DNA of 64,000 nucleotides from Terriglobales bacterium (GCA_035573035.1 DATNAC010000087.1:2157-66156); one strand, 5' to 3'. Counted from the stretch's first letter, positions 37,378 through 55,393 are shown. The notes: a model not told the origin generated them from the letters alone. Numbers and translations are program-made.

Positions 37378-37412
37378 CGGACCGCGGCATCGGATAAGGC
37401 TGGCTGGCGCCA

Positions 37413-37697
37413 ATGGCCCAGGGAATGGAGATGCCCATGGACGATGCGACCCGGGAACCGATCCCGATGCCTTCCCCGCGCGGGGAGGAGCCGGGCTGGC
37501 GGCCGGCTGTGGAACACGTCAGCCGGATGCTGGGCCGCGGCGTGCGCCAAGTGCGGGCCGAGGCCGACCGCTTGCGGGAGTTGGTGCGGGCGGCGCGTAC
37601 CCACGAAGGACGGGAACGCAACTTGGCCCCGTTGCTGGTGCTGACGGCTTCCTGCGCCTTTCTGGTCGGTCTTGGGCTGGGTTGGCGGCGGCGTTAG
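37413..37697 (+). CDS. Small tail-anchored protein, hypothetical
   Basis: 94 aa, high GC3. Charged helical N-terminus and a single C-terminal TM (LAPLLVLTASCAFLVGLGLGW). Confidence 0.5.
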   Translation: MAQGMEMPMDDATREPIPMPSPRGEEPGWRPAVEHVSRMLGRGVRQVRAEADRLRELVRAARTHEGRERNLAPLLVLTASCAFLVGLGLGWRRR

Positions 37698-37709
37698 AGA
37701 GAGGACACG

Positions 37710-37943
37710 ATGGCATCGCGCGCGAACTCGCTTCCCGAATTGGAACGCCGGCTGCAGGAAAAACGGCGCGCCGTGGTTGTCAGTCTGGATGAGCTGCGCG
37801 GCCGGGTGCGGCACGACGTACATGAGTTGAGCCCGCGCCAGCAGGTCAAACACCACGCCGGCGCCGCGCTGGCGGCGGCCGCTCTGCTGGGCCTGCTCGC
37901 CGGCCGTGTGGCCGGTGGTCTCTTGCGGGCGCTGCTACGTTAG
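37710..37943 (+). CDS. Small tail-anchored protein, hypothetical
   Basis: 77 aa. Coiled-coil-like N-terminus (LPELERRLQEKRRAVVVSLDELRGRV) and a C-terminal TM (AALAAAALLGLLAGRVAGGLL). Confidence 0.5.
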   Translation: MASRANSLPELERRLQEKRRAVVVSLDELRGRVRHDVHELSPRQQVKHHAGAALAAAALLGLLAGRVAGGLLRALLR

Positions 37944-37946
37944 AGT

Positions 37947-38414
37947 GTGCACGCCTCGCCTCCGCTTTGCGCGCTGAAACTTGCCGATACGCGCGCCCTA
38001 TGGGAGCTCGATCAGCGCTGTTTTCCGCCGGGTATCGCCTATAGCCAGGCCGAGATCCGCTCCATGCTGCGCCAAGACGGGTTTCATCGCGGCATCGAGC
38101 GCGACGATGCTCCGGGTGAGTTTGCGGCGTTTGTGTTGAGCCAGCGGCACGGACATCGCGGACATATCATCACCCTGGACGTCGGCGCCGAATACCGCCG
38201 CCGCGGTCTGGGCGCGGCGCTGCTGGCGGCGGCCGAGCAGTACTTCCAGGCCCAGGGCACGATCGGCATGCGGCTCGAGGCCGCGGTCAACAACCGCCCC
38301 GCCTTGCAGTTCTACACCCGCTGCGGCTACCGCGTGGTGCGTCCGCTGCCGGGCTACTATGCCGAAGACCTCGACGGTCTACTGCTGCACAAAGACTGGA
38401 AGCCGGCGTCCTAA
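37947..38414 (+). CDS. GNAT-family N-acetyltransferase (RimI-like)
   Basis: Acetyl-CoA motif A YRRRGLGAALLAAAE within the typical GNAT fold length. GTG start. Confidence 0.8.
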   Translation: MHASPPLCALKLADTRALWELDQRCFPPGIAYSQAEIRSMLRQDGFHRGIERDDAPGEFAAFVLSQRHGHRGHIITLDVGAEYRRRGLGAALLAAAEQYFQAQGTIGMRLEAAVNNRPALQFYTRCGYRVVRPLPGYYAEDLDGLLLHKDWKPAS

Positions 38415-38415: not shown

Positions 38416-40041
38416 CTATGAGGACGAGCCGTTGCCGGCCGCGCCCCAGCCGCCGCCGCCGGGGGACTCCAAGCGCAGTACGGCGCCGGCATCGACGAAG
38501 AGGTTGCACTTGCCCGGCAGTTCGCGCTCGCTCTCGCCCTGGGACGTGGTTTGGCGCAGCAAAGTGCGGCCCCGCGCGCCATTCTCGCCGCCGGCGAGAC
38601 CGTACGGGGCAAAACGCCGGCGTTCGCTTAATACGGTGACCTGCGAAGGCGCCAACAATTCAATCTCGCGGATCAGGCCGTCGCCGCCGCGGAACTGGCC
38701 GGCGCCCCCCGAGCCGCGGCGGTAGGCGTAGCGCCGCACCCGGAAGGGGTAGGCGTACTCCAGCGCTTCCACCGGCGTATTCAGGGTGTTGCTCATGTGG
38801 GTGTGCACGCCGGAGAGGCCGTGCGCGCCCGCGATCGCGCCCATGCCCCCGCCGCAGGTTTCGTAATAGGCATAAGGAAGGCCGGAACGGGGATCGAGGC
38901 CGCCGATGGTGAGGTTGTTCATGGTGCCGCTGCTGGCGGCGGGAATGCGGTCGGGCAGCGCCTGGGCGAAGGCGCGCAGCAGCACGTCCACAATGCGCTG
39001 CGAGCACTCCACATTGCCCCCGGCGACGGCGGCGGGCGCGCTGGCATTGACAACCGTTCCGGGCGGGATGATCATGCTGACCGGGCGCATCAGCCCCGCG
39101 GTGGGCGCGGCCTCCTCGGGCAGCAAACAGCGGAATACGTAAAAGGTGGCCGAGTAGGTGATGGCGAAGACGGCGTTGATGCTGCCGATGACCTGGGGAT
39201 CGCTGCCGGTGAAGTCCACGACGGCGCGGGCGCGCTTGGGGTCGAGACGAATCTCGACGCGGAGCTTGACCGGCGTCTCCGCCAACCCGTCGTCATCGAG
39301 GAAGTCCTCGGCGGCGAAGGCGCCGGCCGGCATTTGCCGCAGCTCGGCACGCATCAGGCGCTCGGAGTGATCGAGCATGGCCTGCATGTTGCGCTCGACG
39401 CGGGGCTGGCCATACTTGGCGACCATCTCCCGCAGGCGTTGGGCGCCGATGCGGCAGGCGCCGATCTGGGCGGTGAGGTCGCCCTCGCGTTCGCGCGGGG
39501 TGCGGACGTTGTTGAGGATTAGCGCCAGCAGGGCGCGGTCCATCTCCCCCCGGCGCACGATCTTGAGCGGCGGGATGCGGATGCCCTCCTGGTAAATCTC
39601 ACGGCACAGGCCCATGGAGCCGGGAAAGGTGCCGCCCACATCGGCATGGTGAGCGCGGTTGGCCACATAAAACGCCGGCTGGCCGGATTGCTTGCCGGGA
39701 AACACCGGCACCACCAAGGTGATATCGGGCAGGTGGGTGCCGCCGTCGTAGGGATCGTTGAGGATGGCGATGTCGCCGGGCTCGAGCGGCAGGGCCTTGA
39801 GCGCGGCCTGCACCGACATGGGCATCGAGCCCAGGTGCACCGGCATGTCGTCGCCCATGGCGATCACCTGGCCGCTGCCGTCGAAGAGCGCGCTGGAGTA
39901 GTCGCGCCGTTCCTTGATGTTGGGGGAGTAGGCGCTGCGGCGCAGGGTGGCGCCCATCTCCTCGGCGATGGCGTGGAAGGCGTTCTTGAAAATGGCGAGC
40001 TCGATGGGATCGGGCGCGGCGGCTGGGGTTCGGCTGGGCAT
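38416..40041 (-). CDS. hyuB: Hydantoinase B / oxoprolinase family protein
   Basis: DPIELAIFKNAFHAIAEEMGATLRRSAYSPNIKERRDYSSALFD is the canonical HyuB N-terminus. The ATG at 40041 overlaps the hyuA stop (ATGA). Confidence 0.9.
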   Translation of the reverse strand: MPSRTPAAAPDPIELAIFKNAFHAIAEEMGATLRRSAYSPNIKERRDYSSALFDGSGQVIAMGDDMPVHLGSMPMSVQAALKALPLEPGDIAILNDPYDGGTHLPDITLVVPVFPGKQSGQPAFYVANRAHHADVGGTFPGSMGLCREIYQEGIRIPPLKIVRRGEMDRALLALILNNVRTPREREGDLTAQIGACRIGAQRLREMVAKYGQPRVERNMQAMLDHSERLMRAELRQMPAGAFAAEDFLDDDGLAETPVKLRVEIRLDPKRARAVVDFTGSDPQVIGSINAVFAITYSATFYVFRCLLPEEAAPTAGLMRPVSMIIPPGTVVNASAPAAVAGGNVECSQRIVDVLLRAFAQALPDRIPAASSGTMNNLTIGGLDPRSGLPYAYYETCGGGMGAIAGAHGLSGVHTHMSNTLNTPVEALEYAYPFRVRRYAYRRGSGGAGQFRGGDGLIREIELLAPSQVTVLSERRRFAPYGLAGGENGARGRTLLRQTTSQGESERELPGKCNLFVDAGAVLRLESPGGGGWGAAGNGSSS

Positions 40042-42140
40042 CAGCGGCGCTCCAGGATGAGGTTGAGCCCGGCGTCCAGACGGGCGTGCCAACCGGGAGG
40101 GACTACGGTGGTGGCGCTGTACTCGGTGACGATGGCGGGACCGGCGAAGCGGTCGCCGGCGCGCAGCCGTTCGCGCCGGTAAAACGGGGTGGGCCGGGCG
40201 CGGCCGTCAAAAATCACCGGGCGGCGCCGCTCCAGCGCCTGGGCGCCGCTGCCCCGCCCCAGGCGTTCGCGGTTGAACTGCAACGGCTCCGAGGGGGCGA
40301 GCATGCGCACCCTGGCGTTGACGATCTCCAAGGCACGGCTGGGGTCGGCATAGCCGTAGCGCTGCCGGTGCAGCCGGTGGAAGCGTTCCAGGATGTCCGC
40401 GCCTCCGTTCCACTCCAAGTTGAGTTCGAACCCCTGGCCGGCGTAGCGCAGATCAAGCGAGCGCTGCGCCAGGGGACGCAGCCCCTCGGCCTTCATCTCC
40501 TGACGGCCACGGGTTTCGAGCGCGGCGAAGGGCGCCGCCAGGGCCCGGAATTGGGTGGCAATCTGGCGCGGCGTGCCGGGATCGAGGCGGAGCATGACGG
40601 TGCGGGAATAGTCCTTGACGATATCCGACATCAAAATGCCGAGCGCCGAGAGCGCGCCGGGAAGGCGGGGCACCAGCACCCGGGGGATCTCCAGGCCCTG
40701 GGCGAGGGCGCAGGCATGCAGCGGGCCGGCGCCGCCGAAGCTGACCAGCGTGAACTCGCGCGGATCAAAGCCGCGCTCGACCGAGATCATGCGCAGCGCC
40801 TTCTCCATGGTGGCTTCGGCCAAGCGGACGATCCCATCGGCGAAGAGCTCCACCGACTTGAGCTTGCCCTTGCCGGCCGCCAAGGCGCGCCGGGCGCGCT
40901 CCACATCAAGCCGCAGGCCGCCGCCCAAAAAGCCGGCGGGGTCGAGCCGTCCGAGCACCAGGTTGGCATCGGTGACCGTAGGTAGCTCGCCGCGCCCGTA
41001 ACAGGCGGGGCCGGGATCGGCGCCGGCCGAGGCGGGGCCGACGCGCAGCGCGCCGCCGCGATCGAAGCTGGCGAGCGAGCCGCCGCCCGCGCCCACGGTG
41101 TGAATGTCGAGCATGGGCACGCCCACCGGCAGGCCCATGACCTGGGACTCATTGGTGGTGCGCAGGCCGCTGGCGCCGCCCGGATCATTGGCTACCAGGG
41201 CCACATCGGTCGAGGTGCCGCCCATGTCGAAGCTGAGGATGCGGTCGAAGCCGGCGAGGGCGGCCACACGGAAGGCCCCAACCACCCCTCCTGCCGGGCC
41301 GGAGAGAATCGTGCGCACCGGCTCGCGCGCCGCCTGCGGCGCCGAAACAATGCCCCCCGAGGACTGCATCACATGCAAGCGGGCGCCGGGATAACGCTGG
41401 GTCAGTGTGTTCTGGAGCCGGTTGAGATAGCTGCCCATTTTGGGGGCGAGGTAAGCGTTGATCAGCACGGTAGCGCCGCGTTCGTACTCCCGGAATTCAG
41501 GCAGAATTTGATGGGAGGCCGAGACCGGCACTCCCAATTCCTCCAGCGCGCGCACCACCGCGCGCTCGTTGCGCGGGTTGGCGAAGGAGAACAAGAGCGA
41601 CACCGCCACCGCCTCCGGATTTTGGGCGCGCACCGCCTGGAACAGCGCGGCGAGCGAGGCCGCGGTCACCGGGCGCAAGATGCTGGCGTCGGGCAGCGTA
41701 CGCTCGTCAATGCCGAAGCGCAGAGCGGGCGGCGCCAGCGGCGGCGCCGGGGTGTTGCGCCAGCGGTAGAGATGCGGCCGCGCCTGACGGCCGATGGCGA
41801 TGGTGTCCTCAAATCCGGCGGTGGTGACATAGGCGACCCGGGCGCCGGTGCGCTCCAGCAGGGCGTTGGTGCCGACCGTGGTGCCGTGGCGGATTTCGGC
41901 CCCTCCTGCCGGGCCAATCTCTTCCAGCGCGGCCCGGATGGCACTGCCCGCGTCGTGCGGGGTGGAGAGCACCTTGAGCACCCGCGGCTCGCCGTTCTCT
42001 ATCCACACGCAGTCGGTGAAGGTTCCGCCGGTGTCCACCGCGATCCGCTCCGGGGCTGGACGCGCGGAGGCGTCGCGCTTCGAGGCGTGGCGTGCGGGCG
42101 GCCGAGATCGGGAGCGTTGCGGGGCAACGGCTGCGGTCAA
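40041..42140 (-). CDS. hyuA: Hydantoinase A / oxoprolinase family protein
   Basis: RIAVDTGGTFTDCV, SFDMGGTSTDVA and the other HyuA motifs. The TTG start in the track overlaps the GntR stop, so the true start is uncertain by about 30 codons. Confidence 0.9.
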   Translation of the reverse strand: MTAAVAPQRSRSRPPARHASKRDASARPAPERIAVDTGGTFTDCVWIENGEPRVLKVLSTPHDAGSAIRAALEEIGPAGGAEIRHGTTVGTNALLERTGARVAYVTTAGFEDTIAIGRQARPHLYRWRNTPAPPLAPPALRFGIDERTLPDASILRPVTAASLAALFQAVRAQNPEAVAVSLLFSFANPRNERAVVRALEELGVPVSASHQILPEFREYERGATVLINAYLAPKMGSYLNRLQNTLTQRYPGARLHVMQSSGGIVSAPQAAREPVRTILSGPAGGVVGAFRVAALAGFDRILSFDMGGTSTDVALVANDPGGASGLRTTNESQVMGLPVGVPMLDIHTVGAGGGSLASFDRGGALRVGPASAGADPGPACYGRGELPTVTDANLVLGRLDPAGFLGGGLRLDVERARRALAAGKGKLKSVELFADGIVRLAEATMEKALRMISVERGFDPREFTLVSFGGAGPLHACALAQGLEIPRVLVPRLPGALSALGILMSDIVKDYSRTVMLRLDPGTPRQIATQFRALAAPFAALETRGRQEMKAEGLRPLAQRSLDLRYAGQGFELNLEWNGGADILERFHRLHRQRYGYADPSRALEIVNARVRMLAPSEPLQFNRERLGRGSGAQALERRRPVIFDGRARPTPFYRRERLRAGDRFAGPAIVTEYSATTVVPPGWHARLDAGLNLILERR

Positions 42141-42958
42141 CGCGATTTCCTCCTGGAGGACTCCTTGCGCGCGGTGAGCGAGGGATCCACTGCAATGCTA
42201 GCGCGAGCGTCATGAAACTGGGCCGCGTCGCCGCGTTCGGGAATGCCGCCCGGAACCAGTCCCTCCGGCGGGAAACTCGCCATCAGCCCGGGGTCGGTGA
42301 TCAACTCGCCCAAGCGGGTCTCGGTCGAGGTCATGAACAGGCCGGCGGAGCGCCGGATCGTGTTGGTCACGTGATCGGCGGCGCGCTGCCGGGCTTCTTC
42401 CGGACGGCGTGCGCGGATGGCGCGCACGATCTCCTCGTGCTCGTTCACGAGTTGGGGGCCATAAGCGTCCATGGCGATGATCAGGTAAAAGAAGCGCATC
42501 AGCCGGGTCTGAACCGAGGTCACGATCTCCACCAGGTGCTGGTTGTGCGAGGCCTGGGCGATGCCCACATGCAGGTTGAAGTTGCGCTGCAAGAAGGTGA
42601 AGTAGCTGGAGCGGACGCCGACGCGGTAAGCGTACTCGGCCCAGCCCTCCATGGCTTTCAGCTGGTGCGGCTGGGCGCGGAGCGCGGCCAGGCCCGCGGC
42701 GGCCGGGTCGACGATGAGCTGGATCTCGTGCAGGTTGTGGAATTCGGCCAGCGTGAGCGGGGCCACGAAGTAGCCGCGGAAGGGGACGATGTTGATCAGC
42801 CCTTCACGCTCGAGGTGGCGGCAGGCTTCGCGCACCGGTGTACGGCTGCCTTTGTAGCGGCGGCAGATTTCGGATTCGGAAAAAGGCGCGCCCGGACGCA
42901 GCACACAGGTGGTGATGTCTTGCTTGAGGCTGCGGTAGAGGCGTTCGGAAGTGGTCAT
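42137..42958 (-). CDS. GntR-family transcriptional regulator (FadR/FCD subfamily)
   Basis: Start moved to the ATG at 42958. Winged HTH LYRSLKQDITTCVLRPGAPFSESEICRRYKGSRTPVREACRHLEREGLI plus a helical FCD-like C-domain. Confidence 0.87.
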   Translation of the reverse strand: MTTSERLYRSLKQDITTCVLRPGAPFSESEICRRYKGSRTPVREACRHLEREGLINIVPFRGYFVAPLTLAEFHNLHEIQLIVDPAAAGLAALRAQPHQLKAMEGWAEYAYRVGVRSSYFTFLQRNFNLHVGIAQASHNQHLVEIVTSVQTRLMRFFYLIIAMDAYGPQLVNEHEEIVRAIRARRPEEARQRAADHVTNTIRRSAGLFMTSTETRLGELITDPGLMASFPPEGLVPGGIPERGDAAQFHDARASIAVDPSLTARKESSRRKSR

Positions 42959-42993
42959 AGGCCCCCGGGTTCCGGGCCGCAAAATATGCAAAC

Positions 42994-43000
42994 GGTATAC
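42994..43000. promoter_or_regulatory. Possible GntR/FadR-type operator core
   Basis: GGTATAC (palindromic GTATAC core) lies 36 nt upstream of the gntR start in the divergent spacer. Fits the generic GT-Nx-AC rule only. Confidence 0.3.
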
Positions 43001-43119
43001 AAGCGGTAAGCCTACGGTGTTTGCGGGAGGCCTGTCAAGCACGGGGCGCCCTCTGACTGGTGGAAAATTCAGCCGCGCAGTGCCACTCTCCGCCATTAGG
43101 CCCAATCACTAAAAAAACT

Positions 43120-43148
43120 ATTGACTGAGACTGCGGCGTATTGTATAA
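43120..43148 (+). promoter_or_regulatory. Candidate sigma-70-type promoter for the receptor operon
   Basis: TTGACT, a 17-nt spacer, then TATAAA, in an AT-richer patch 54 nt before the ATG at 43202. Confidence 0.45.
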
Positions 43149-43201
43149 ACCCGTGAGCGCGGGAACCGCGCGGGGCGGCCCACGCCGCCGGGAGGGCTCT
43201 T

Positions 43202-46165
43202 ATGGGTGCATGTTGGATTCGCCGCGCCGGCAATGCCGCCGGCGCCGCCGGATTGGCCTTGGCGCTGGTGCTGTTCGCCGGCGCTCCGCTGCGAGCGCAA
43301 GATACCGCCCAGATTCAGGGCACGGTCACCGATACCAGCGGCGCCGCCCTGCCGGGGGTCACGGTGACCGCCACCAATGTGGCCACCGGGGCCAGCCGGG
43401 TGGTGGAAGCCGGCGCCGACGGCCGCTTCCTGCTTCCGGCGCTGCCGCTCGGCACCTACAAGATTCAGTACGTCAAAACCGGCTTCTCCACCACCGAGGT
43501 CAACGGCGTCTTGCTGCAAATTGGCACCGTGATTGATCGGCACGACCAGCTCAAGGTGGCGGCCCAGGCGGCCACGGTCGAGGTCTCCGGGACCGCTCCC
43601 GCCATCGATACCTCCAAGAGCAACGTGGCCGGAGTCATTACCGACAAGCAAATCGATCAGCTGCCGATTCAAAACCGGCAGTACCTCAACCTCTCGCTGC
43701 TGATGCCGGGCACCACCCAGGACGCCTCGCGCTCGTTCTACAGCAACGTCCAATTGGGGGGCGGGGACCACTACTACTCCAACGGCTTTACGGTGGACGG
43801 GGTCAACAACACTTGGGCCGAAATGGGCGAGCCGCGCGAGAACTTTCCCGAGGGGGCGGTGGCCGAGTTCAAGGTCTACAGCTCGCAGTTCAAGGCGGAT
43901 GAGGGCGGCATGGCGTCCGGCGGCGCGGTCTCGGTGGTTACCAAGAGCGGCACCAACCAGTTCCACGGCGACGCCTTCGAGTACTGGCGCAACCAGGACC
44001 TGAACCGCGACAACAGCTTCCAGAAGTCCGCCGAGGTGTCGCAACACACCGGCAAGGCGCCGCTCGACCGCAACCAGTTCGGCGGCTCGCTGGGCGGGCC
44101 CATCCTGAAAAACAAGCTGCACTTCTTTGGCGCCTGGGAGTCCACCCTGACCCAGGGTTCGTATACGGTCTTTAGCAACAGCCCGATTTTTGCCGCCTAC
44201 GACGGGGTCTACAAGCAGCCCAGCCACGACGATCTGCTGACCGTGCGCGGCGACTACCAGATCAACAACGACCAAAGCCTATTCGTGCGTTTCGGCGACG
44301 AATGGAACCTGCTCACCTGCCAGGGCTGCGGCGGCGCCAACTCCCCCAACGGCGGCTATGACGGTCTGCTGCCGCGCCACTCGCTGGTGGTGGGCCACAC
44401 CTGGGCGTTGGGCTCGACCATGGTCAACGACGCCCGCTTCCAGTACGCCAAGGCCAGTTACCTGCTGGCGCCTAGCCAGTGTCCGCAGGCCTGCGGACAG
44501 AACATCTGGACGCAGATCGGACAGTATCCGGCCTCACGGTTTGCGCCGTACGTGACCACGCTCAGCTTCCCGGACTTTTCCATTGGGAGCGACTACGGGG
44601 ACGACGGCATCGAGAGCCACTGGGAGGTGTCCGACAGCTTCAGCATCTTCCACGGCGCGCACAACCTGAAGTTTGGCTTTGACGACAGCTATATTCCATT
44701 TGCCGACGATGCGCCGGTGGGGATTAAAGGTGCGTTCAGCTTTACCGCCGATCCGACCACCGCGATCAATCCCGCCGACCCGGTGGGCCAGGGCACGCTG
44801 TCGGCCGCGAACTTGTACACCGCGTCGTATGGGCCGACCTCGTTTTCTCAAACCGTCCCGCCGGTGTTGACTTCGGTGCCGACCGCGGAGACCAGCTACT
44901 ACGTCACCGACGACTACAACGGCATCCACAACCTGACCTTAAGCGCCGGGCTGCGCTACGACCGGGAGTTTGGATCCTTCGATGAGCATATCAACCCGGC
45001 CGCCTTCGCTCAGCCGGTGCCCTTCCTGGGCGATCCCAGCCAACGCGGCGACAAGAACAACTTCGGGCCGCGCCTGGGATTGTCGTGGAACATTCACGGC
45101 GACGGCAAGGATATCGTGCGAGCCGGCTACGGCATTTACTACAACAACCTCCAGACCCTGCAGAACTTTTCCGAAGACCGCAATTTTGCCCAGAGTGTGG
45201 TGAGCATCACCTGTTCCAAACCGGGCCAGGCGGGCTGCCCGTCCTATCCCAGCGCCTTCGCCAACGGCCAGACCGCGGCCACGGTGCTGCCCACGGTGAC
45301 GGTGCTGGCGCCCAACTATCAGAACCCGTATTCGCAGCAGTACAACCTGGGCTACTCGCGCGAGATCAGTCCCAACTTCTCCATTCACGCCGACGGCGTG
45401 TATGAGTTGACGCTGCGCGATTACAAGGTGCTGGATCTCAACTACCCGACCAGCGGCACTACCCGGCCGCTGCCGCAGTACGCGCGCATTCTCCAGCACG
45501 ACCCCATTTCGCATTCCCAGTACAAGGCGCTGTATGTACGCGCCGACAAGCGCTTTGCCCGCCGCTACCAGTTCCTGGTGTCCTACTCCCTCACGAGCTG
45601 CTACGATGACAACCCGCAGGGTACGATCACCAACCTCGCCAATTGGGGCCAGGATTGGGGACCCTGCTCGATCGACCGGCGCAATGCGCTGGTGGCCAGC
45701 AGTTCCTACCAGGCACCGTGGGGCATTACCTTGGGGGCGGTCTACAACATCCGTTCCTCGGAACCCTTCAGCGAGACCTCAACCACCCGCAACGTCGACG
45801 GTTCCAGCCAGTATGTGACCGGCACCAGCCGCAATCAGGGCCGCCGCGACTTGGACTACACCCAGATCAACGCGTACCGCACCACGCTGACCTACAAGGA
45901 CAACCAGGGGGTCACCCATTTTTTCCCCACGGTCGACCCATCCATGCTCGCCAGCGGGCGCTACAACGAACTCGACATCCGCGCCGCGCGGGGCTTCAAC
46001 CTGGGCGAAAGCCGCCACCTCGATGTGATTGCCCAGGTGTTCAACGTCATGGGCACCTACAACTACACCGGCATCACCACCAGTCTCAGCTCGCTCAGTT
46101 GGGGACAGCCCACCGGGGCGGGACCCTTGCAGCAGGCGGAGTTGGCGTTACACTTCACTTTCTAG
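43202..46165 (+). CDS. TonB-dependent outer-membrane receptor with carboxypeptidase-regulatory-like domain (Oar-like)
   Basis: 987 aa. Signal peptide, then IQGTVTDTSGAALPGVTVTATNVATG...DGRFLLPALPLGTYKIQYVKTGF, and a long barrel ending in LALHFTF. Confidence 0.9.
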   Translation: MGACWIRRAGNAAGAAGLALALVLFAGAPLRAQDTAQIQGTVTDTSGAALPGVTVTATNVATGASRVVEAGADGRFLLPALPLGTYKIQYVKTGFSTTEVNGVLLQIGTVIDRHDQLKVAAQAATVEVSGTAPAIDTSKSNVAGVITDKQIDQLPIQNRQYLNLSLLMPGTTQDASRSFYSNVQLGGGDHYYSNGFTVDGVNNTWAEMGEPRENFPEGAVAEFKVYSSQFKADEGGMASGGAVSVVTKSGTNQFHGDAFEYWRNQDLNRDNSFQKSAEVSQHTGKAPLDRNQFGGSLGGPILKNKLHFFGAWESTLTQGSYTVFSNSPIFAAYDGVYKQPSHDDLLTVRGDYQINNDQSLFVRFGDEWNLLTCQGCGGANSPNGGYDGLLPRHSLVVGHTWALGSTMVNDARFQYAKASYLLAPSQCPQACGQNIWTQIGQYPASRFAPYVTTLSFPDFSIGSDYGDDGIESHWEVSDSFSIFHGAHNLKFGFDDSYIPFADDAPVGIKGAFSFTADPTTAINPADPVGQGTLSAANLYTASYGPTSFSQTVPPVLTSVPTAETSYYVTDDYNGIHNLTLSAGLRYDREFGSFDEHINPAAFAQPVPFLGDPSQRGDKNNFGPRLGLSWNIHGDGKDIVRAGYGIYYNNLQTLQNFSEDRNFAQSVVSITCSKPGQAGCPSYPSAFANGQTAATVLPTVTVLAPNYQNPYSQQYNLGYSREISPNFSIHADGVYELTLRDYKVLDLNYPTSGTTRPLPQYARILQHDPISHSQYKALYVRADKRFARRYQFLVSYSLTSCYDDNPQGTITNLANWGQDWGPCSIDRRNALVASSSYQAPWGITLGAVYNIRSSEPFSETSTTRNVDGSSQYVTGTSRNQGRRDLDYTQINAYRTTLTYKDNQGVTHFFPTVDPSMLASGRYNELDIRAARGFNLGESRHLDVIAQVFNVMGTYNYTGITTSLSSLSWGQPTGAGPLQQAELALHFTF

Positions 46166-46212
46166 TGTGACCGGCGGCGGGCGACCGCGGTAGCAGCCGG
46201 AGAGGAAATGTC

Positions 46213-49200
46213 ATGCGCCGTTATGGAATCGTCGTAGGTCTCAGCGCGGTGGCCGCACTCGCCGCCTGGGCCCAAACCCGTCCCACGCAGGGAGTCCGCG
46301 GGCAGGGGCGCGCCGCCGCGGCCGCCCCGCGCTCGGCGCTGAGCCGGGCCTTCTCCCCCGGCTGGATGCTGACCGACACCAACGGCGACGGCCTGGCGGA
46401 CGCCATTGACGGCCATATCGTGGTTCCGGCTACGCCCAGCGCCGCCGAAAACGCGGCCGCGGCCAACCTGGCGGCGCGCCTGGCCTACGGTTCGAGCGGG
46501 TTGACGCCGCCGCTGGTGGTGGCGGCCGCGGCGGCGCCGGCTTCGGGCCCGCATATCTATGTGGGCGCGGGGGCGGTGCCGGCCCCGCAGGCGGCGGCGC
46601 TGCGTTCCTGGACCTTCCGCTTGGCCAAGGGCGAGGGACGGGTGGCGGTCCTTGATCCGGGACATGGCGGCGACTTGGTGCTGGTCGGCGGCGATGACGC
46701 CGGCTTGACCGCGGCGGCGGAAGCCTTCTCGGCGCGCGCGCCGTTTCAGTGGAAGGTGGCCAACGGCGCCGACTCGCTGGATGCGATCAGCAGCGTGGTG
46801 AAGGACGCCGCCCCGAACTCCGGCGTCGAGCTGGTCGGTGTGGCCTATCAGGCGGGCACGCCCGGTATCAGCAAGGCCTACCTGACCGCCACCGGTGCGA
46901 TCACGGCGGCCGATCTGCAAAAAGCGTTGGCCTCCTCGCAGTTGGCCGCGGTGCATGAGCTCTTCGTGCTGGGAGGAGCGGCGGTGAGCGCCACCAATCC
47001 CAAGGCGTTTCATCCCCAGACCTTCGCCGCACCGGAGACGCCGGCCGGCGGCGACAACGGCGCTGACGATACCGCGGCGGCGGGAGCGCCCGCCCCGGCC
47101 GCGGCGGGCGGACGTGGCGCGGCGGGCGGCCGCGGCGGCGCCGGAGGGGGTGCCGCCGCCGGGGGTACCGTCAGCGGCCTCGATCTCGGGCTCCTCTATT
47201 CCAACCACGGCTTGTTCGGTTCCAGCGGACGGATTCCGGTACCGGCCACGCTGACTTCGCATCTCTACGTGCCTGCCGGCGCGGCCGGCGTGGCCATGGC
47301 CAACCTGGCGGCGCGCATGGGCATGGAGACCACCGGGATGACCTTCCCGGTCGCGAGCCCGGCCGCCAGTGCCGATCTGCACCAAATCACCGAACAGCCG
47401 GTGGTCGCCGGTGACGGCGCCCTCGCCCAGGCGGTTCAGAAAAAACTCGAGGCGAACGATACCTCCGCGGCCGCCGCCGCTCCGCCGCTAAAACCCGGCG
47501 AAGGTCAGCTTCGCATTGTGGACCGGAGCTTCGGCAGCCATGCCGCGCTGCTGGTCCGCGGCGACGATGCCGGCGCGGCCGCGGCCTTGAACCTGGCCGC
47601 CGATCATTTGCCTAGCCTCTGGGAGCCAGGCAAGCAGTACGCCGGCATTGAGGACGTCCGCTACGACCTGCACCAATTCTTCTCGTTGCACTCCGGCGTG
47701 GGCCAAGCCGCCGCGGGCATGTTCTTCCTCCAGCGCTGGCTCAAGGACCTCGGTCCCAATCCCACCAACGTCAAGGCCGAACTGTACACCGATCTCGCCG
47801 ATCCCCAGCTCTCCAGCTTCGTGGCCAAGCAGATTCAGGATCAGGTCCACGTCCAGGCCGAGGTGGATACCGCCAGCCTGCGCGCCGGCACCCAGTGCTG
47901 CGACGATAACCCCGACTTGCATTACACCAACCCCGAGTTCCCCTTCCACCAAGGCAAGCCGATTTTCACCGAAGACATCCACATTCCCTGGGAGGGTACC
48001 AAGCTGCTCGACGACGTGCGCGGCGCCGCGGCACATCTCGAAGCCGGCCAGCCGGTGAATATCGAGGCGCGGGTGAGCGAGGGTCCGGCGGAGCGCAAAA
48101 AGCTCACCGCGCAAATCGATTCGATTCTCGATCAGGCGGGCGTGCCCGCCGCCCAGCGCCAGGTGGTGGTGCTCGACGCCTACAAGCAAGGATTCAGTTG
48201 GCTGGTGGACGAGATCGAGCCCGAGCTGCAAGGCAAGGGCGTCGCCAGCCTCAGCCTCGATTTCGCCAAGGATGTGGACGAGACCGGTGTGCGCGACATG
48301 TACTCCCCGGCGCGCTGGGCGCAGGAACTCTACCCGGTGGACGAGGTCCTGGCGAAGGATCTGAACATCCCCCTGGCCAAAATCAGCCTGCACGAGATCA
48401 ACACCGCGCCTCCGGTGGCGACGCCCACCGCGATCGCCATGGCGGATCCGCCCAACGACCCGCCCAGTCCGACGTACCGGGTGCATGCCTACGATGCCGC
48501 GGGCAAGGAGATCCTCGGCCGCGACTTCACCGTTACCACGGTGATGCAGCCCTACAGCGGCGTCATCAAGGCCTACGAGAATGTCCAGGTGGACACCGGC
48601 TGGGTGAAGCTCGAGCAGGGAGGCAAGGCGGTCCTCGATGAGCGTATCCCCACCGACATCGAGACCTTCTGGGATCACTATCAGAACGTCACCCTGCCCC
48701 GCGTCTTCCGCTTCGTGATGGCGCAGTCGAAGGGCTACCTGCACACCGAGTACGCCCCGCCCTTCGACACGCTCAAGATGGACTTTCATCTGAGCGAGCC
48801 CGACTACAACCTTGGCATTGATAAGGAACGCATCTCCTCCATCGAGGCGCTGCAAGAAGACGTCTTCTACTCGACGGAAACCTTTATTGACGCGCTGGCC
48901 GACCTCGAGAGCGGCCGTGCGGAGAACTACGTCGGCCGCGTCATTCCGGTGATGCACCCCGCCGAGGACGGCAAGGACGGCCTGGTGCACGTCGAGTTCT
49001 ACGGCAAGGCGGCCGCCAACCCGGTGGTGCGCCTGAGCTGGACCGATGCTCACGGCCAGGTGCGGGAGCGCGAGCGCAACCTGCCGGTGCTCACCGGCGG
49101 CTTCCAGCCGCGCCTGATCGGCGCCCGGGTGCAGGCGGGGGCGAACGGTCTCCAGCCCGAGATCGAGAACCTGACCTGGCTGCTCCCGGCCGACTTCAAA

Positions 49201-50673
49201 AAGTACGACATGCAGGACTGGGAGAAGGTGCAGGGCCGCGAGCAGTTGGAGCGCTCGATGTTCACCGTCGAAGAGGCCGAAGGGCAATTGCACTGGCTCG
49301 ACGCCATGCATGCCGCCGGGCTCTATCCCGATGAACTGGCCTATACACATCTGCGGCACATGGCGATCGAGCTGCAGCTACCGCGCCCGCTGGGGGTGGA
49401 GTTCAGCAAGCCCGAGGAGCGGGTGCTGTTGGGTTGGAACGTCGCTCCGCCGCTGCATCCGCGGCCGATGATTACCGACATCACGCCCATGCCGATCAAC
49501 CCGGCTACGCACTCCTTCGTGCAGTGGTCGGAGCCGATCGGCCCGGCCGAGAGCGCCTCCATCCAGGCGCGCCTGTCCACCTACCCTGGCGTCACCACAT
49601 ATTGGATGGGGCGCAGCTACTTGGGCCAGAACATCTGGGTCAGCGATATCATGCTGCCCTCGCCCTCGACCCTGCGTTCCTCCGCCAAAGAGACCACGCT
49701 CAAGGCCTCCATCGTGTACTCCGCGCGCCAGCACGCCAACGAGGTCTCCAGCACCAGCCACGTCGAAAAGCTGGCCGAGATGCTGGTCACCGATCCCGCC
49801 GAGCGCGCTTACCTGAAGCAAGTCAACGTGGTCCTGCACCCGATTGACAACCCTGACGGCGCCCAGCTCTCGGTGATGGAGGCCAAAATCGAGCCGGACA
49901 ACCTGCTGCACTTGGGTTATCACGGCGCCCTCGCCGCCGACGTGTCGAGCGGTCAGGCCGACATCGATCCGGTCTATCCCGAGTCCCGCACCCGGCGGCA
50001 ATTGCTGCAGGAGTGGAACCCGGACGCCTTCCTCAACCCCCACGGTTATCCCTCGCACGAGTGGGTGCAGCCCTTCAGCGAGTACACCGCCTGGGTGCAG
50101 AGCCGCGACGGCGCCAACAACGGCCGCACTTGGTGGATTCCGCGCGGCTGGTTCACCAGCTTGAGTTTTGCCCGCGACACCACCACCAACACATATTCCG
50201 AGGCCGTAACCTTCGCGCTGCGCGACCGCATCGTGGACGCCGAACGCAAGGTGCCCGGACTGCTGCCGCTGGAGACGCGCATGAACGACCGCTACCAGCG
50301 CTGGGGACAGGCCTTCCAGCCCGACAACATGCAGCAGCCGGTGGTAAACGGCATCCGCATTTACATGTCGCTCAAAGGGACCTCCGCCACCGGCGGCGGC
50401 CAGGCCGGCCCGGGTGCGAGCTCCGCCATCACCTGGGACCAGGGCTACACCGAGGCGCCGGACGAGACCGCGCATGGCGACTACATGAAGCTGGTGGCGT
50501 CGGCGGGCTTGGCCTACGACCAGGTGCACTTGAAATACCTGGCTTTGGGTAAGCTCCGCATCACCCGCGGCGAAAAGGAAAGCGCCCAGGGTGTGACCTG
50601 GTCGGTCACGCGCGCGCGCCCCATTCTGCCGAGCTCGGAGCCGCCCGTGCCGCTGCCGCCCGATGGCAAATAG
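46213..50673 (+). CDS. Secreted 1486-aa protein with a C-terminal M14 (zinc carboxypeptidase)-like domain
   Basis: Signal peptide MRRYGIVVGLSAVAALAAWAQ. M14-like motifs QHANEVSSTSH (H-x-x-E, codons from 49732), HPIDNPDG and LNPHGYPSHEW. About 1100 N-terminal residues have no family I can recognise. Confidence 0.78.
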   Translation: MRRYGIVVGLSAVAALAAWAQTRPTQGVRGQGRAAAAAPRSALSRAFSPGWMLTDTNGDGLADAIDGHIVVPATPSAAENAAAANLAARLAYGSSGLTPPLVVAAAAAPASGPHIYVGAGAVPAPQAAALRSWTFRLAKGEGRVAVLDPGHGGDLVLVGGDDAGLTAAAEAFSARAPFQWKVANGADSLDAISSVVKDAAPNSGVELVGVAYQAGTPGISKAYLTATGAITAADLQKALASSQLAAVHELFVLGGAAVSATNPKAFHPQTFAAPETPAGGDNGADDTAAAGAPAPAAAGGRGAAGGRGGAGGGAAAGGTVSGLDLGLLYSNHGLFGSSGRIPVPATLTSHLYVPAGAAGVAMANLAARMGMETTGMTFPVASPAASADLHQITEQPVVAGDGALAQAVQKKLEANDTSAAAAAPPLKPGEGQLRIVDRSFGSHAALLVRGDDAGAAAALNLAADHLPSLWEPGKQYAGIEDVRYDLHQFFSLHSGVGQAAAGMFFLQRWLKDLGPNPTNVKAELYTDLADPQLSSFVAKQIQDQVHVQAEVDTASLRAGTQCCDDNPDLHYTNPEFPFHQGKPIFTEDIHIPWEGTKLLDDVRGAAAHLEAGQPVNIEARVSEGPAERKKLTAQIDSILDQAGVPAAQRQVVVLDAYKQGFSWLVDEIEPELQGKGVASLSLDFAKDVDETGVRDMYSPARWAQELYPVDEVLAKDLNIPLAKISLHEINTAPPVATPTAIAMADPPNDPPSPTYRVHAYDAAGKEILGRDFTVTTVMQPYSGVIKAYENVQVDTGWVKLEQGGKAVLDERIPTDIETFWDHYQNVTLPRVFRFVMAQSKGYLHTEYAPPFDTLKMDFHLSEPDYNLGIDKERISSIEALQEDVFYSTETFIDALADLESGRAENYVGRVIPVMHPAEDGKDGLVHVEFYGKAAANPVVRLSWTDAHGQVRERERNLPVLTGGFQPRLIGARVQAGANGLQPEIENLTWLLPADFKKYDMQDWEKVQGREQLERSMFTVEEAEGQLHWLDAMHAAGLYPDELAYTHLRHMAIELQLPRPLGVEFSKPEERVLLGWNVAPPLHPRPMITDITPMPINPATHSFVQWSEPIGPAESASIQARLSTYPGVTTYWMGRSYLGQNIWVSDIMLPSPSTLRSSAKETTLKASIVYSARQHANEVSSTSHVEKLAEMLVTDPAERAYLKQVNVVLHPIDNPDGAQLSVMEAKIEPDNLLHLGYHGALAADVSSGQADIDPVYPESRTRRQLLQEWNPDAFLNPHGYPSHEWVQPFSEYTAWVQSRDGANNGRTWWIPRGWFTSLSFARDTTTNTYSEAVTFALRDRIVDAERKVPGLLPLETRMNDRYQRWGQAFQPDNMQQPVVNGIRIYMSLKGTSATGGGQAGPGASSAITWDQGYTEAPDETAHGDYMKLVASAGLAYDQVHLKYLALGKLRITRGEKESAQGVTWSVTRARPILPSSEPPVPLPPDGK

Positions 50674-51939
50674 ATGCCCAATAGCGTCCCAGCCGTGGTG
50701 AGCAGTTCTCCCGCCGCGCCACCGTTCCGCTGGAAGAGCACGAGCCGTGCGCAGCGCCGCACCCTGGTGGCCGCCGGCCTGGGGTGGATGCTGGACGCCT
50801 TCGACGTCATGCTCTACTCGTTGGTGCTGACCCACCTCATGGCGGCCTTCGCCATGAGCAAGTCCACCGCGGGATTGCTCAACAGCCTGACCCTGATCGC
50901 CAGCGCCATCGGCAGCTTGATCTTCGGCCTTCTGGCCGACCGCTTCGGACGCCGGCGCATGCTCAGCGCCAGCATCCTGACGTACTCGTTGTTTACTTTT
51001 GCCTGCGGCTTCTCGACCAGCATCACCATCCTGGCCACGCTGCGGTTTTTTCTTGGCTTGGGCATGGGCGGGGAATGGAACGCGGGCGCGACCCTGGTTG
51101 CCGAGACCTGGCCCTCGGCCTGGCGCGGACGTGCGCTGGGCATCGTGCAAAGCAGTTGGGCCGTCGGCTATGCCCTGGCGGCGCTGGTGGCCGGCCTGGT
51201 GCTGGCCCACGCCAGTTGGCGCTGGGTGTTTTTCGTGGGTGTGCTGCCGGCGCTCGCGACGCTGTGGATTCAGCACGATGTTCCCGAGCCGGAGCTGTGG
51301 CAGCGGCAGCGGGACGTCACGCCGGCCGCCGGGGCGACTCGCCGGTTGTGGCGGCAGGCCACACCGCGCCTGCTCGCCCTGCTTGCCATGAACACCTTCG
51401 GGATGTTCGCCTGGTGGGGCATGTTCACCTGGCTGCCGGCCTATTTGATGCTGCCGGTGTCGCAGGGCGGGCGCGGGTTTGCCATGTTCGGCAGCTCCGC
51501 CTTCCTGATTATCTTGAACCTGTGCGGCATGCTGCCGGGCTATCTGCTCTTCGGCGTGTTCGCCGATCGCTACGGGCGCAAACGCACCGTGGTCGTCTAC
51601 CTGGCGGCCGCGGCGCTGCTGGTCCCCTGGTTTGCGAGCGCGCGCCAGCCCGGCATGATTCTGCTGGCGGCCTCGCTGGTGGCGTTTTTTGGGACAGGGT
51701 TCTTTACCGGTTCCGGCATCTTGGGCAGCGAGTTGTTTCCCACGCCGATTCGGGCCACGGCGCTCGGACTGTCCTATAACGTGGCGCGCGGGCTGAGCGC
51801 CTTTGCGCCGTTCGTCATCGGCGGCGTGGGCGAGACCAAAGGCCTGGCCTGGGCCTTTGGCTTGTGCGGCATTGCTTTTGCCCTGGCGGCGGCGAGCGCG
51901 TTGGGGGTTCCGGAAACACGAGGATTGGAGTTGATATGA
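50674..51939 (+). CDS. MFS transporter (organic acid/anion symporter-like)
   Basis: GLLADRFGRRRML and RFFLGLGMGGEWNAG motifs, 12 TM. The ATG immediately follows the upstream stop. Confidence 0.9.
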   Translation: MPNSVPAVVSSSPAAPPFRWKSTSRAQRRTLVAAGLGWMLDAFDVMLYSLVLTHLMAAFAMSKSTAGLLNSLTLIASAIGSLIFGLLADRFGRRRMLSASILTYSLFTFACGFSTSITILATLRFFLGLGMGGEWNAGATLVAETWPSAWRGRALGIVQSSWAVGYALAALVAGLVLAHASWRWVFFVGVLPALATLWIQHDVPEPELWQRQRDVTPAAGATRRLWRQATPRLLALLAMNTFGMFAWWGMFTWLPAYLMLPVSQGGRGFAMFGSSAFLIILNLCGMLPGYLLFGVFADRYGRKRTVVVYLAAAALLVPWFASARQPGMILLAASLVAFFGTGFFTGSGILGSELFPTPIRATALGLSYNVARGLSAFAPFVIGGVGETKGLAWAFGLCGIAFALAAASALGVPETRGLELI

Positions 51940-53384
51940 AACTCACGGGGAAAACGTCGTTGCTGGGGGCCGGTCTAGGGCTGGCCGCCGTGCTGTGCGT
52001 CGGTTGCGGACAGGGAGCGAGCAGCGCTCCGGCGGCGGCCGCGCCGCCCCCGGCGCCCATGCCCGCGGCCCAGGTACACGACGTGGCCGCCTTTCTGCAG
52101 ACGCTTCCCGTCGCTCAGACGCCGCCGATGAATGAGTTGGAGGCCATGACACTGGCCTCGTATCCGCTGTCTTGTCTCGATCATCTGCAAGCTCAGTCCG
52201 GCGGGGGCGGGGGTGGCGCGGCCGCCGCGGATGCCGGCGCGGCCGGTGGAGGGCGGAGCGGGCGCGGTGGGCGCGCCAACGCTTCGGCGGACGGTGCCAC
52301 GCCTGGCGGCGGCGGCGCCGGAGCCAGCGCCAGTGGCGCAAACGCTGGCGCGGCGGCTCCGGCGGTTCCGGCCGCCCCTGCCGGGCGCGGCGCCTACCTC
52401 TGGCAGTCGGCCGGCCCCACCCGTCTGATGGCCGGCTACGACCGGCAGCGCTCCTTCTACGGCTGCTACGACTGGCACTCGGCGGTGAACTCCACCTGGA
52501 CGCTGGTCACCGTGCTCAAAAAGTACCCCAACATACCGATCGCGCAGCTCATCCGCGAGAAACTCAACGACCACCTCGGCAAACGCAATTTGGCGGGAGA
52601 ACTCACCTTCTTCGAGGGCTCCAAGAGCTTTGAGCGTCCTTACGGCCAGGCCTGGCTGCTGAAGCTGTACGGCGACCTGCTCACGTGGAACGACCCCGAT
52701 GCCAAGAAATGGGCCGCCAACATGCAGCCGCTCGCGGACTTCTTCTCCAAGAACCTCGCTGGCTACCTGACCAAGCTGCCCACGCCAGTGCGGCAAGGCG
52801 TCCATCCCAACACCGCTTTCGATATGGACCTGATGTTGCCGTACACCGAGGAAGCGCACGACACCGCGCTCCACGACGCCATCCTGGCGACCTCGCACCG
52901 CTTCTACGACGGCGACCAGGATTGCCCCACCGGTTATGAGCCCGAGGGCGTGTCCTTCCTTTCGCCCTGTTTGGTCGAGGGAGCGCTCATGTCGCACGTG
53001 ATGGACGGGAACCACTTCCTGGCCTGGTTTAACGACTTCATGCCGGCTGTGTACTCGCGCTCTTTCCGTCCCCTGGTCTCGCCCTTCGACGCCAGCAAAA
53101 TCACCCCCGACCAGATGGCGGGCCAGTCCCACCTGATCGGACTCGCCTTCTCGCGCGCGGCGGCCATGCTTACCATCGCCCAAGCGCTCCCCGCCAACGA
53201 CCCCCGCGTCCCGGTCCTGCGCCGCCTCGCGGCCATCCATGCGGTGCAGGGTTACAAGACCCTCGACAAGGCCGGCTATTTGGAGACCCACTGGATCGCC
53301 ACCTACGCCCTGATGTACGAGTTACACTCCGGATCGGGCATGACCTCCAACCTCAAGGTGGCCTCCCTCGCCGGCCAGCAGTAG
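51936..53384 (+). CDS. DUF2891-like lipoprotein with a Gly/Ala-rich insertion
   Basis: The ATG at 51936 overlaps the MFS stop. Lipobox LAAVLCVGCG. The core (FYGCYDWHSAVNSTWTLV...) resembles DUF2891 as I recall it. About 70 aa of low-complexity insert at 52188-52395. Confidence 0.7.
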   Translation: MKLTGKTSLLGAGLGLAAVLCVGCGQGASSAPAAAAPPPAPMPAAQVHDVAAFLQTLPVAQTPPMNELEAMTLASYPLSCLDHLQAQSGGGGGGAAAADAGAAGGGRSGRGGRANASADGATPGGGGAGASASGANAGAAAPAVPAAPAGRGAYLWQSAGPTRLMAGYDRQRSFYGCYDWHSAVNSTWTLVTVLKKYPNIPIAQLIREKLNDHLGKRNLAGELTFFEGSKSFERPYGQAWLLKLYGDLLTWNDPDAKKWAANMQPLADFFSKNLAGYLTKLPTPVRQGVHPNTAFDMDLMLPYTEEAHDTALHDAILATSHRFYDGDQDCPTGYEPEGVSFLSPCLVEGALMSHVMDGNHFLAWFNDFMPAVYSRSFRPLVSPFDASKITPDQMAGQSHLIGLAFSRAAAMLTIAQALPANDPRVPVLRRLAAIHAVQGYKTLDKAGYLETHWIATYALMYELHSGSGMTSNLKVASLAGQQ

Positions 53385-53902: not shown

Positions 53903-54140
53903 TCGGTACCCAGGCCTCGCGGGATACGCTTGGCCAAACCCGGCAACCCAATCTCATGCCGATCAACGCCTGGGCTAGAACCCTCAGCCCTGCGTCATTT
54001 CACACACGCTGCTGGCGCGAAACTCGCAGTGCGAGTGTTGCGCCCCCGGCAAGCAATGCAGGCGCGGTCCCCGCGCCCATCAAACGCCCCGGGTCGCTGG
54101 GCGGCCTTGGAAGTTGCGCTGGGGCCGCGGCTATCAATAT

Positions 54141-54156
54141 TGGCCGTCCAACTGCT
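54141..54156 (+). promoter_or_regulatory. Candidate sigma-54 (-24/-12) promoter
   Basis: TGGCCG-TCCAA-CTGCT with GG-N10-GC spacing, 24 nt before the ATG at 54181. GGAGG RBS in between. Confidence 0.5.
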
Positions 54157-54180
54157 TTCTCACCCTTGTCGGAGGTTTTT

Positions 54181-55350: not shown

Positions 55351-55393
55351 GCGGCCAACGGGAGCGACCCAGCGCAAAAAGTGGCCGTGCCAC
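55351..55393 (+). repeat. Dispersed intergenic repeat, copy B (43 nt)
   Basis: GCGGCCAACGGGAGCGACCCAGCGCAAAAAGTGGCCGTGCCAC. See copy A at 11716-11756. Confidence 0.85.

Follow-up and report, generated by a model that had tools for sequence, protein, structure and literature searches.

The divergent operons at positions 38416-53384 of the window, a 64,000-nucleotide stretch of a Terriglobales bacterium (GCA_035573035.1, DATNAC010000087.1:2157-66156), encode what we read, with moderate confidence, as a nutrient-acquisition locus with two modules, carried by an uncultured, Terriglobales-like acidobacterium. One operon carries the genes of a GntR-type regulator and of HyuA and HyuB, the two subunits of a predicted ATP-dependent lactam hydrolase. 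The other encodes a TonB-dependent receptor (TBDR), a giant protein with a C-terminal M14 peptidase match, a transporter of the major facilitator superfamily (MFS) and a DUF2891 lipoprotein. The lactam opened by HyuAB is most likely 5-oxoproline (pyroglutamate).

The Oar-type TBDR, the exported 160-kDa M14 hydrolase and the DUF2891 lipoprotein would constitute an envelope module that takes up and trims a peptide-like substrate exceeding the size limit of porins. This substrate may enter through the TBDR or be trimmed by the M14 protein at the surface or in the periplasm, with the DUF2891 lipoprotein active in the same compartment. 5-oxoproline, which ordinary aminopeptidases cannot use, could be the remnant of N-termini blocked by a pyroglutamyl residue (pGlu), or be formed from glutamine or γ-glutamyl residues. 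It would then cross the inner membrane through the MFS symporter and be opened to glutamate by HyuAB at the expense of ATP. The regulator would repress gntR-hyuA-hyuB by binding a palindrome of the TGTATACA type that covers the transcription start; we assume that the lactam, or a metabolite related to it, relieves the repression.

HyuAB is placed among ATP-dependent lactam hydrolases

The HyuA/HyuB family divides into lactam hydrolases and carboxylases (PMC8453981). Its database matches place HyuAB with the ATP-dependent lactam hydrolases, far from the carboxylases. The nearest PDB entries of HyuB are N-methylhydantoinase (7hk5, E = 1.4e-85) and caprolactamase (6yra_B, 4e-69), while its carboxylase counterparts score E = 1e-11 to 1e-13. 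HyuA matches the same two enzymes (7hk5, 1e-120; 6yra, 9e-112). Among the NCBIfam models, HyuA and HyuB reach 484 and 278 bits with CapA/CapB, compared to 254 and 67 bits with ApcC/ApcD. Both subunits have the make-up of the lactamases, with a full-length A domain accompanied by its N- and C-domains and a B domain encoded by the adjacent gene. No gene for a third, carboxylase-type (γ-like) subunit is found among the open reading frames (ORFs) of the gntR-hyuAB operon. The sequence-only reading of this DNA had named a grouping with acetone and acetophenone carboxylases as one outcome that would speak against it; we rejected this identity on the PDB and NCBIfam scores and the lack of additional subunit genes.

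The full-length domains and translationally coupled subunit genes are features HyuAB shares with OPLAH, CapAB and N-methylhydantoinase. OPLAH, the eukaryote-type 5-oxoprolinase, is a fused protein, whereas HyuAB consists of two separate subunits, whose substrate we assign from the genomic context. With 484 and 278 bits, HyuAB falls short of the 1000-bit equivalog cut-off for caprolactamase CapAB (NF050156/NF050157).

Genomic context points to 5-oxoproline

Three contextual and mutually independent lines make 5-oxoproline the most likely lactam. The first comes from an 821-kb contig, on which a 35%-identical homologue of the giant M14 protein is encoded divergently from LamB_YcsF, CT_C_D and CT_A_B genes followed by an MFS gene. 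These are the three PxpABC families, and the MFS protein of this pxpA-pxpB-pxpC-MFS operon is 52% identical to that of the window. To our knowledge, the PxpABC family is known solely as the bacterial 5-oxoprolinase, an attribution that reportedly goes back to Niehaus et al. 2017. PxpABC has no sequence relationship to HyuAB and appears to take its place beside the M14 and MFS genes in a non-orthologous displacement. It is therefore a functional analogue with the same apparent job and context, not a relative.

The second line is a contig of 39.5% G+C, evidently from another phylum (Bacteroidota-like). It carries, in this order, genes for an extracytoplasmic function (ECF) sigma factor, FecR, SusC, SusD, a giant M14 protein and a DUF2891 lipoprotein, and continues with a small outer-membrane β-barrel gene, fused HyuAB, Nramp and an S9 peptidase. 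In the sequence-only reading, HyuAB was proposed to act on cyclic-amide or N-blocked amino acid products set free by the M14 enzyme. This idea gains independent support both from PxpABC beside M14 and the orthologous MFS, and from the co-occurrence of M14, DUF2891 lipoprotein and fused HyuAB in the SusC/SusD locus. The Nramp gene that follows the fused HyuAB there (L095, 17776-19113) has a counterpart beside pxpA on a Klebsiella plasmid (L085, 16034-16846), which hints at a recurrent tie of Nramp-like transporters to 5-oxoprolinases.

The third line concerns DUF2891. Burkholderia, Novosphingobium and Klebsiella have a DUF969-DUF979-DUF2891 triad, and in Klebsiella pxpA lies some 6 kb from it. 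In Sphingomonas parapaucimobilis, fused HyuAB, DUF969, DUF979 and DUF2891 form one operon, flanked by a divergent TBDR gene and a FadR/GntR gene, and a Pontixanthobacter comparison lists the same families as co-occurring. Campylobacter jejuni no longer grew with 5-oxoproline as its nitrogen source once the corresponding genes, cj0552-4, had been deleted (PMC12795558). These operons resemble the window in combining DUF2891 with an inner-membrane transporter, to which the sphingomonads add HyuAB, a TBDR and a FadR/GntR regulator. They differ in having no M14 gene and, for the proteobacterial DUF2891 proteins, no signal peptide, whereas the window has an MFS transporter and an exported lipoprotein with a long linker.

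A different HyuAB substrate, such as a 5-substituted hydantoin, N-methylhydantoin, a δ- or ε-lactam or a cyclic dipeptide, would make the locus serve another N-heterocyclic compound and seems quite improbable. The best-scoring characterised relatives are indeed N-methylhydantoinase and caprolactamase, no equivalog threshold is reached, and the substrate range within the family is broad (PMC8453981). Such a substrate would however leave unexplained why a protein of this M14 family and an MFS orthologue stand beside PxpABC, why DUF2891 occurs with DUF969/DUF979 and pxpA, and why the C. jejuni operon has a phenotype on 5-oxoproline. The locus also contains no gene for an N-carbamoyl-amino-acid amidohydrolase, which would be needed to finish a hydantoin pathway.

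The two modules are linked in part of the relatives

We scanned one genome per species and obtained 80 loci with a giant M14 homologue, onto which the window proteins were mapped by tblastn. Linkage could be judged at 46 acidobacterial loci, which have at least 8 kb upstream and at least 3 kb downstream. Homologous loci occur among others in Edaphobacter- and Terracidiphilus-like genomes (L072, L075 and L080). HyuB is found at 17 of the 46, the MFS at 16, both at 14 and neither at 27. The presence of the MFS tracks that of HyuAB, and two further HyuAB loci carry a divergent MFS in the corresponding position. A gntR gene lies beside HyuAB at 12 of the 17 loci and at none lacking HyuAB. TBDR homologues (44-81% identity) adjoin the M14 gene at 18 of the 46 and, across all 80 loci, occur on either side of it. 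DUF2891 is inserted between TBDR and M14 in L066, L076 and L080. At L053 and L057, a different HyuAB paralogue pair (31-38% identity) lies near M14 paralogues.

HyuAB and M14 occur in three gene orders: divergent as in the window, co-directional with HyuAB upstream (L072, L079), and with HyuAB downstream (L071). When 71 M14 proteins are placed in a neighbour-joining tree, loci linked to HyuAB fill the deep branches as well as the clade of the window, and one large derived clade of Bryobacteraceae and Acidiferrales has no HyuAB. This distribution suggests an ancestral linkage that was later lost or relocated. The expected co-occurrence of the two operons in related genomes is thus borne out by 17 of the 46 loci, on deep branches and in three orders.

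The same survey bears on the idea that the locus consists of two independent units that share no substrate stream and only adjoin each other in a region for scavenging peptides and amino acids, one of TBDR-M14(-DUF2891) for general protein degradation and one of GntR-HyuAB and MFS for lactam catabolism, which we regard as unlikely. Most M14 loci lack both HyuAB and MFS, and there the M14 gene is found among other peptidases: its neighbours encode S9, S10, other M14 and Ntn-type hydrolases, which fits a proteolytic role. Around these HyuAB-less M14 genes we found assorted peptidases and regulators but no second conserved module. A TBDR-DUF2891 pair also occurs alone in L081, and the conserved operator described below lies on the gntR-hyuAB promoter only. 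Independence is nevertheless difficult to reconcile with the MFS gene, which starts 0 nt after the M14 gene on the plus strand, yet follows HyuAB on the other strand. Moreover, the linkage has outlasted rearrangement and deep divergence, and it was re-created with the non-homologous PxpABC and in the SusC/SusD locus of another phylum.

Predicted promoters and operator of the divergent spacer

We compared twelve divergent gntR/TBDR spacers, which are otherwise no longer alignable. A palindrome, NNGTATACNN, is located near the gntR start in 11 of the 12, several of which have a second, degenerate copy alongside. The candidate operator takes the conserved form (C/T)(G/T)GTATAC(A/C)(A/G) with fixed geometry in 10-11 of the 12. 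The reverse -35 box (TGTCAA; AGTCAA in one) is retained in ten spacers, and AGCCTA is kept in close relatives. The spacing between the predicted gntR-hyuAB promoter and the palindrome of the TGTATACA type is conserved: 40-43 nt separate the palindrome from the reverse -35 in all ten spacers with a recognisable box, so that it would cover the predicted start of transcription.

Upstream of the TBDR gene, the pattern TTGAC(A/T/C)-N16-18-(T/A)A(T/A)AAN is present in 11 of the 12 spacers. The -10 region of this putative promoter reads TTGTATAAAC in the window and looks like half of an operator; its L002 counterpart is a full AGTATACC. The consensus scan did not list the promoter because its -10 box ends in A, where the scan rule wants T. 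The sequence-only reading had placed a sigma-70-like promoter and a GTATAC core in the spacer, and both are present (Table 1) and conserved across relatives.

GTATAC occurs five times in the window compared to 2.2 expected, and in a single sequence neither motif goes beyond chance. The significance of operator and promoter comes from their position-specific conservation in 10-11 of the 12 spacers. The other four GTATAC sites (7409, 12527, 13199 and 44161) lie inside ORFs for a histidine kinase, a BNR/sortilin-like protein and the TBDR, and are probably chance occurrences.

The domains of GntR assign it to the FadR subfamily (FCD) of GntR transcription factors, and repression of gntR-hyuAB by its own product is well supported as a prediction. 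The FadR/GntR protein of Sphingomonas was considered as an ortholog with the same operator and rejected, as the proteins are 25% identical and its spacer lacks GTATAC. We also rejected a riboswitch or structured leader of the TBDR gene: Rfam gave no hit, either in the window at gathering score or in the spacer at E<=1, and folding does not differ from shuffled sequences (z = -0.33).

Architecture of the giant M14-like protein

A Sec signal peptide is shared by the giant M14 protein and its homologues. Two N-terminal domains of the S-layer-outer-domain type, separated by an Ala/Gly linker, are followed by about 700 residues and a divergent C-terminal M14 domain. The two N-terminal domains are weakly related to each other (internal repeat, E = 2e-5), and in distant family members they match S_layer_C. 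Ala/Gly/Pro low-complexity linkers are encoded at about 47005-47173 in this gene and at about 52020-52440 in the DUF2891 gene.

The M14 match (PF00246) scores 48.2 bits against a cut-off of 21.6 and spans only model positions 5-106 of 286; seven distant homologues give the same partial match. Across 14 homologues, H1174-x-x-E1177, H1277 and E1414 do not vary. They represent putative zinc ligands and the putative catalytic, general-base glutamate, with H1277 and E1414 assigned by spacing and motif. The HxxE...NPDG segment aligns to carboxypeptidase B, HxxE on HxxE. The zinc-site pattern HxxE...NPDG...H with a conserved downstream glutamate is thus like that of M14 metallocarboxypeptidases. The resemblance to any solved structure is limited to about 100 aligned residues; the roughly 1100 N-terminal residues have no PDB fold match, and the architecture is found in no characterised M14 member. 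M14-like enzymes also include deacylases and γ-glutamyl hydrolases, such as AstE/AspA, MpaA and phage PghP.

The alignment of homologues has a mean column identity of 68% over the whole 1486 residues. Residues 320-1096 are modelled with a predicted local distance difference test score (pLDDT) of 70, and this middle region has no PDB fold match at E<0.05. It contains an invariant vicinal cysteine pair, C562-C563. A full-length profile gives no match to PDB sequences, the best match of a C-terminal profile is at E = 0.4 over 60 residues, and Pfam at E<=10 adds nothing further. The family, as defined by the N-terminal region, comprises at least 944 clusters at 50% identity and has proteins of about 1400 residues. 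The sampled full-length members all retain the C-terminal M14 match, and one of them is labelled Gemmatimonadota. The nearest homologues are all in metagenome-assembled genomes of Terriglobales, Bryobacteraceae and Acidiferrales.

Tandem paralogues of the giant M14 protein are encoded in L094 (1-16415), L096 (16262-18580) and L095 (21277-21985), with DUF5916 proteins repeatedly after or near them. Some of the DUF5916 proteins near giant M14 carry CBM9, and DUF5916 may take the part of outer-membrane partner instead. Fragments of a γ-glutamyltranspeptidase gene are located 2.5 kb from an M14 gene in L094.

TBDR, MFS and DUF2891 proteins

The TBDR has the signal peptide, CarboxypepD_reg N-terminal extension and 22-strand-type barrel of the Oar subclass, which is defined by this extension and a TonB-dependent transporter (TBDT) β-barrel (PMC6434023). 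Pfam detects no Plug domain in it, even at E<=10; by eye, a TonB-box-like ATVEVSG is followed by a plug-like ITDKQIDQLPIQNRQYLNLSLLMPG. A second Oar-type TBDR (CarboxypepD_reg and OMP_b-brl_4) is encoded at 16773-19604 on the minus strand of the window.

The subclass raises the question of direction. In Myxococcus xanthus, Oar exports the protease PopC, and the window TBDR could in principle export the giant M14 protein, and perhaps DUF2891; the M14 protein would then work outside the cell, with its small products entering via porins and the MFS transporter. We give this arrangement only a slight chance. Besides the shared architecture, it could draw on the adjacency of TBDR and M14 genes in either order at many loci, and on the different outer-membrane proteins (SusC/SusD, DUF5916) with which M14 is paired elsewhere. 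A single Oar-type exporter is known, though, and its cargo PopC is about 50 kDa, compared to 160 kDa for the giant M14 protein, a cargo three times larger. We know of no report that oar is encoded next to popC. In addition, Oar-type TBDRs are very numerous in Acidobacteria, as the second copy in the window illustrates, which suits nutrient import. The partner in the Bacteroidota-like locus is SusC/SusD, a classical import device, and many M14 loci have no adjacent TBDR.

The best NCBIfam subfamilies of the MFS protein are aromatic-acid/H+ and sialate/H+ symporters (TIGR00895, 213 bits; TIGR00891, 192 bits; both below cut-off), and we predict it to be of the organic-anion:H+ symporter type.

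The DUF2891 protein carries a lipobox-like LCVGC, followed by an Ala/Pro/Gly linker of about 150 residues and the DUF2891 domain. In its orthologues from Terriglobales the lipobox is clear (LAGC, for example). The sole solved relative is C. jejuni Cj0554 (PDB 8IEU; 8ieu_A, E = 1.5e-41). The sequence-only reading had assigned the logic of a utilisation locus to the four plus-strand genes: the signal peptide of the M14 protein and the lipobox of DUF2891 fit the envelope location that this implies, whereas that the TBDR is an importer and the M14 protein secreted is something we infer.

DUF2891 and M14 genes have further hydrolase neighbours. A penicillin-amidase-family (Ntn hydrolase) gene adjoins the TBDR-DUF2891 pair of L081 (4739-11191), and another lies directly upstream of the giant M14 gene in L097 (7487-14338). 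In Roseomonas marmotae (L087, 7838-9858), translational coupling joins DUF2891 to the gene of a P1 (DmpA-type) aminopeptidase, and the pair adjoins a gene for a peptide ABC substrate-binding protein, a further association with peptidases.

A bolder and more tentative proposal is that the giant M14 protein and the exported DUF2891 define an undescribed envelope pathway, extending from Acidobacteriota to Bacteroidota, that dismantles a specific extracellular polymer, pGlu-capped or γ-glutamyl-linked, and deliberately channels it into 5-oxoproline. DUF2891 would then be a new 5-oxoproline-releasing or -forming enzyme, and the roughly 1100-residue N-terminus of the M14 protein would serve, together with the TBDT, as a new scaffold for substrate capture or for docking at the outer membrane. 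Candidate polymers may include pGlu-blocked necromass peptides, poly-γ-glutamate and muropeptide stems.

Weighing the two-module reading

A number of observations weigh against the two-module nutrient-acquisition locus. About two-thirds of the M14 loci have no HyuAB within 10 kb, making the linkage facultative, and a 5-oxoprolinase-type gene of any kind is missing within 10 kb at 27 of the 46 close and seven of nine sampled distant loci. From this majority it follows that the M14 protein is independent of HyuAB and that its substrate need not be pGlu-specific; a broader proteolytic role, with the oxoprolinase module as an accessory, would account for it. Free 5-oxoproline is porin-sized, and so the TBDR must serve another substrate. 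The displacement by PxpABC is seen at one locus, and the arrangement of SusC/SusD with M14 at one locus plus one similar place. HyuAB scores below every NCBIfam equivalog cut-off. The M14 domain covers about one-third of the Pfam model, and the AlphaFold model of the C-terminal region has a pLDDT of 42. No operator in clear overlap with the TBDR promoter was found, and the conserved one lies on the gntR-hyuAB promoter only. Finally, proteobacterial DUF2891 proteins have no signal peptide while the acidobacterial ones are exported, and because of this difference one common role of DUF2891 is not obvious.

Relation to known systems and significance

The locus shares its general logic with the SusC/SusD polysaccharide utilisation loci and the proteobacterial carbohydrate utilisation (CUT) loci: a TBDT, an exported hydrolase or lipoprotein, an MFS transporter, cytoplasmic enzymes and a local regulator. 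A homologous M14 gene set even lies inside a real SusC/SusD locus. The window itself is not such a locus, as all seven proteins lack a SusD domain. Its transporter is of the Oar subclass, its hydrolase is peptidase-like instead of a glycoside hydrolase, and its cytoplasmic enzyme is a putative ATP-dependent lactamase. We found no published description of this gene cluster in the literature.

Little is known about the diet of the Acidobacteria, although few bacteria are more abundant in soil. Ordinary aminopeptidases do not attack pyroglutamate or pGlu-blocked peptides, and a dedicated route for them would therefore be a distinct niche in soil organic-nitrogen turnover. Through the locus, a bacterial HyuAB and two uncharacterised families become linked to one specific metabolite that can be tested. 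It offers testable functions for the giant M14-like family, DUF2891, split bacterial HyuAB and a specific MFS clade, and the displacement between HyuAB and PxpABC can guide the annotation of these genes in other phyla.

Layout of the locus and its surroundings

The window has a G+C content of about 66%. A mechanical ORF list combined with Pfam and NCBIfam scans recovered all seven named genes (Table 1). Their positions, the plus-strand intergenic gaps of 47, 0 and -4 nt calculated from the coordinates, and the 243-bp gntR-TBDR spacer (42959-43201) agree with the sequence-only reading.

Table 1 Genes and predicted regulatory elements of the locus, in window coordinates
Feature	Position	Strand	Assignment
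hyuB	38416-40041	-	PF02538 Hydantoinase_B, 695 bits, model positions 1-518/519
hyuA	40041-42140	-	Hydant_A_N PF05378, Hydantoinase_A PF01968, Hydant_A_C PF19278
gntR	42137-42958	-	GntR winged helix-turn-helix PF00392, 54 bits; FCD PF07729, 72 bits; ATG at 42958
Candidate GntR operator CGGTATACAA	42993-43002		Palindromic core GTATAC, 42995-43000
Predicted gntR-hyuAB promoter	43009-43038	-	-35 TTGACA (TGTCAA, 43033-43038), N18, -10 TAGGCT (AGCCTA, 43009-43014)
Predicted sigma-70-type TBDR-operon promoter	43121-43149	+	TTGACT (43121-43126), N17, TATAAA (43144-43149)
TBDR gene	43202-46165	+	CarboxypepD_reg PF13620, 59 bits; OMP_b-brl_4 PF25183, 339 bits
Giant M14 gene	46213-50673	+	1486 aa; Peptidase_M14 match confined to residues 1117-1220
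MFS gene	50674-51939	+	MFS_1 PF07690, 162 bits; Sugar_tr
DUF2891 gene	51936-53384	+	PF11199, 305 bits, above gathering score

The regulator gene is the first of the gntR-hyuA-hyuB operon, and its coupling to the hydantoinase pair through overlapping codons can be read directly in both junctions. The gntR stop and hyuA start share TTGA, with an AGGAGG Shine-Dalgarno sequence 8 nt upstream of the TTG start; an internal GTG about 30 codons into hyuA may be an alternative start. The hyuA stop and hyuB start share TGATG, with the hyuB ATG at 40041 in a mechanical ORF that reaches 40092. The DUF2891 gene starts on an ATGA overlap and encodes a 482-residue product, identical to an independent public gene call on the source contig. 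The consensus promoter and terminator scan found no plus-strand terminator after this gene.

The flanks are unrelated to the locus: on its left lies a convergent GNAT gene, and on its right are universal stress protein (USP) and BON-domain genes. The GNAT acetyltransferase gene (37947-38414, plus strand) ends 1 nt from the hyuB stop, and this position is kept in the closest relatives only (L001, L002, L005 and L018). Further to the left, two minus-strand ORFs have no Pfam match, one of 784 residues (33187-35541) and one of 160 (37374-37856); an M23 peptidase ORF (35150-36646, plus strand) has its mechanical start within the larger one. Tandem genes for amino-acid permeases of the APC family (23122-24678 and 24697-26364, both minus strand) are possibly relevant to the uptake of amino acids released by peptidases, and in relatives they are unlinked to the locus. 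Downstream, a block of USP, BON-domain and USP genes (53956-57622) is followed by a gene resembling ADP-forming acyl-CoA synthetases (57928-60570; CoA_binding, Succ_CoA_lig and ATP-grasp_5).

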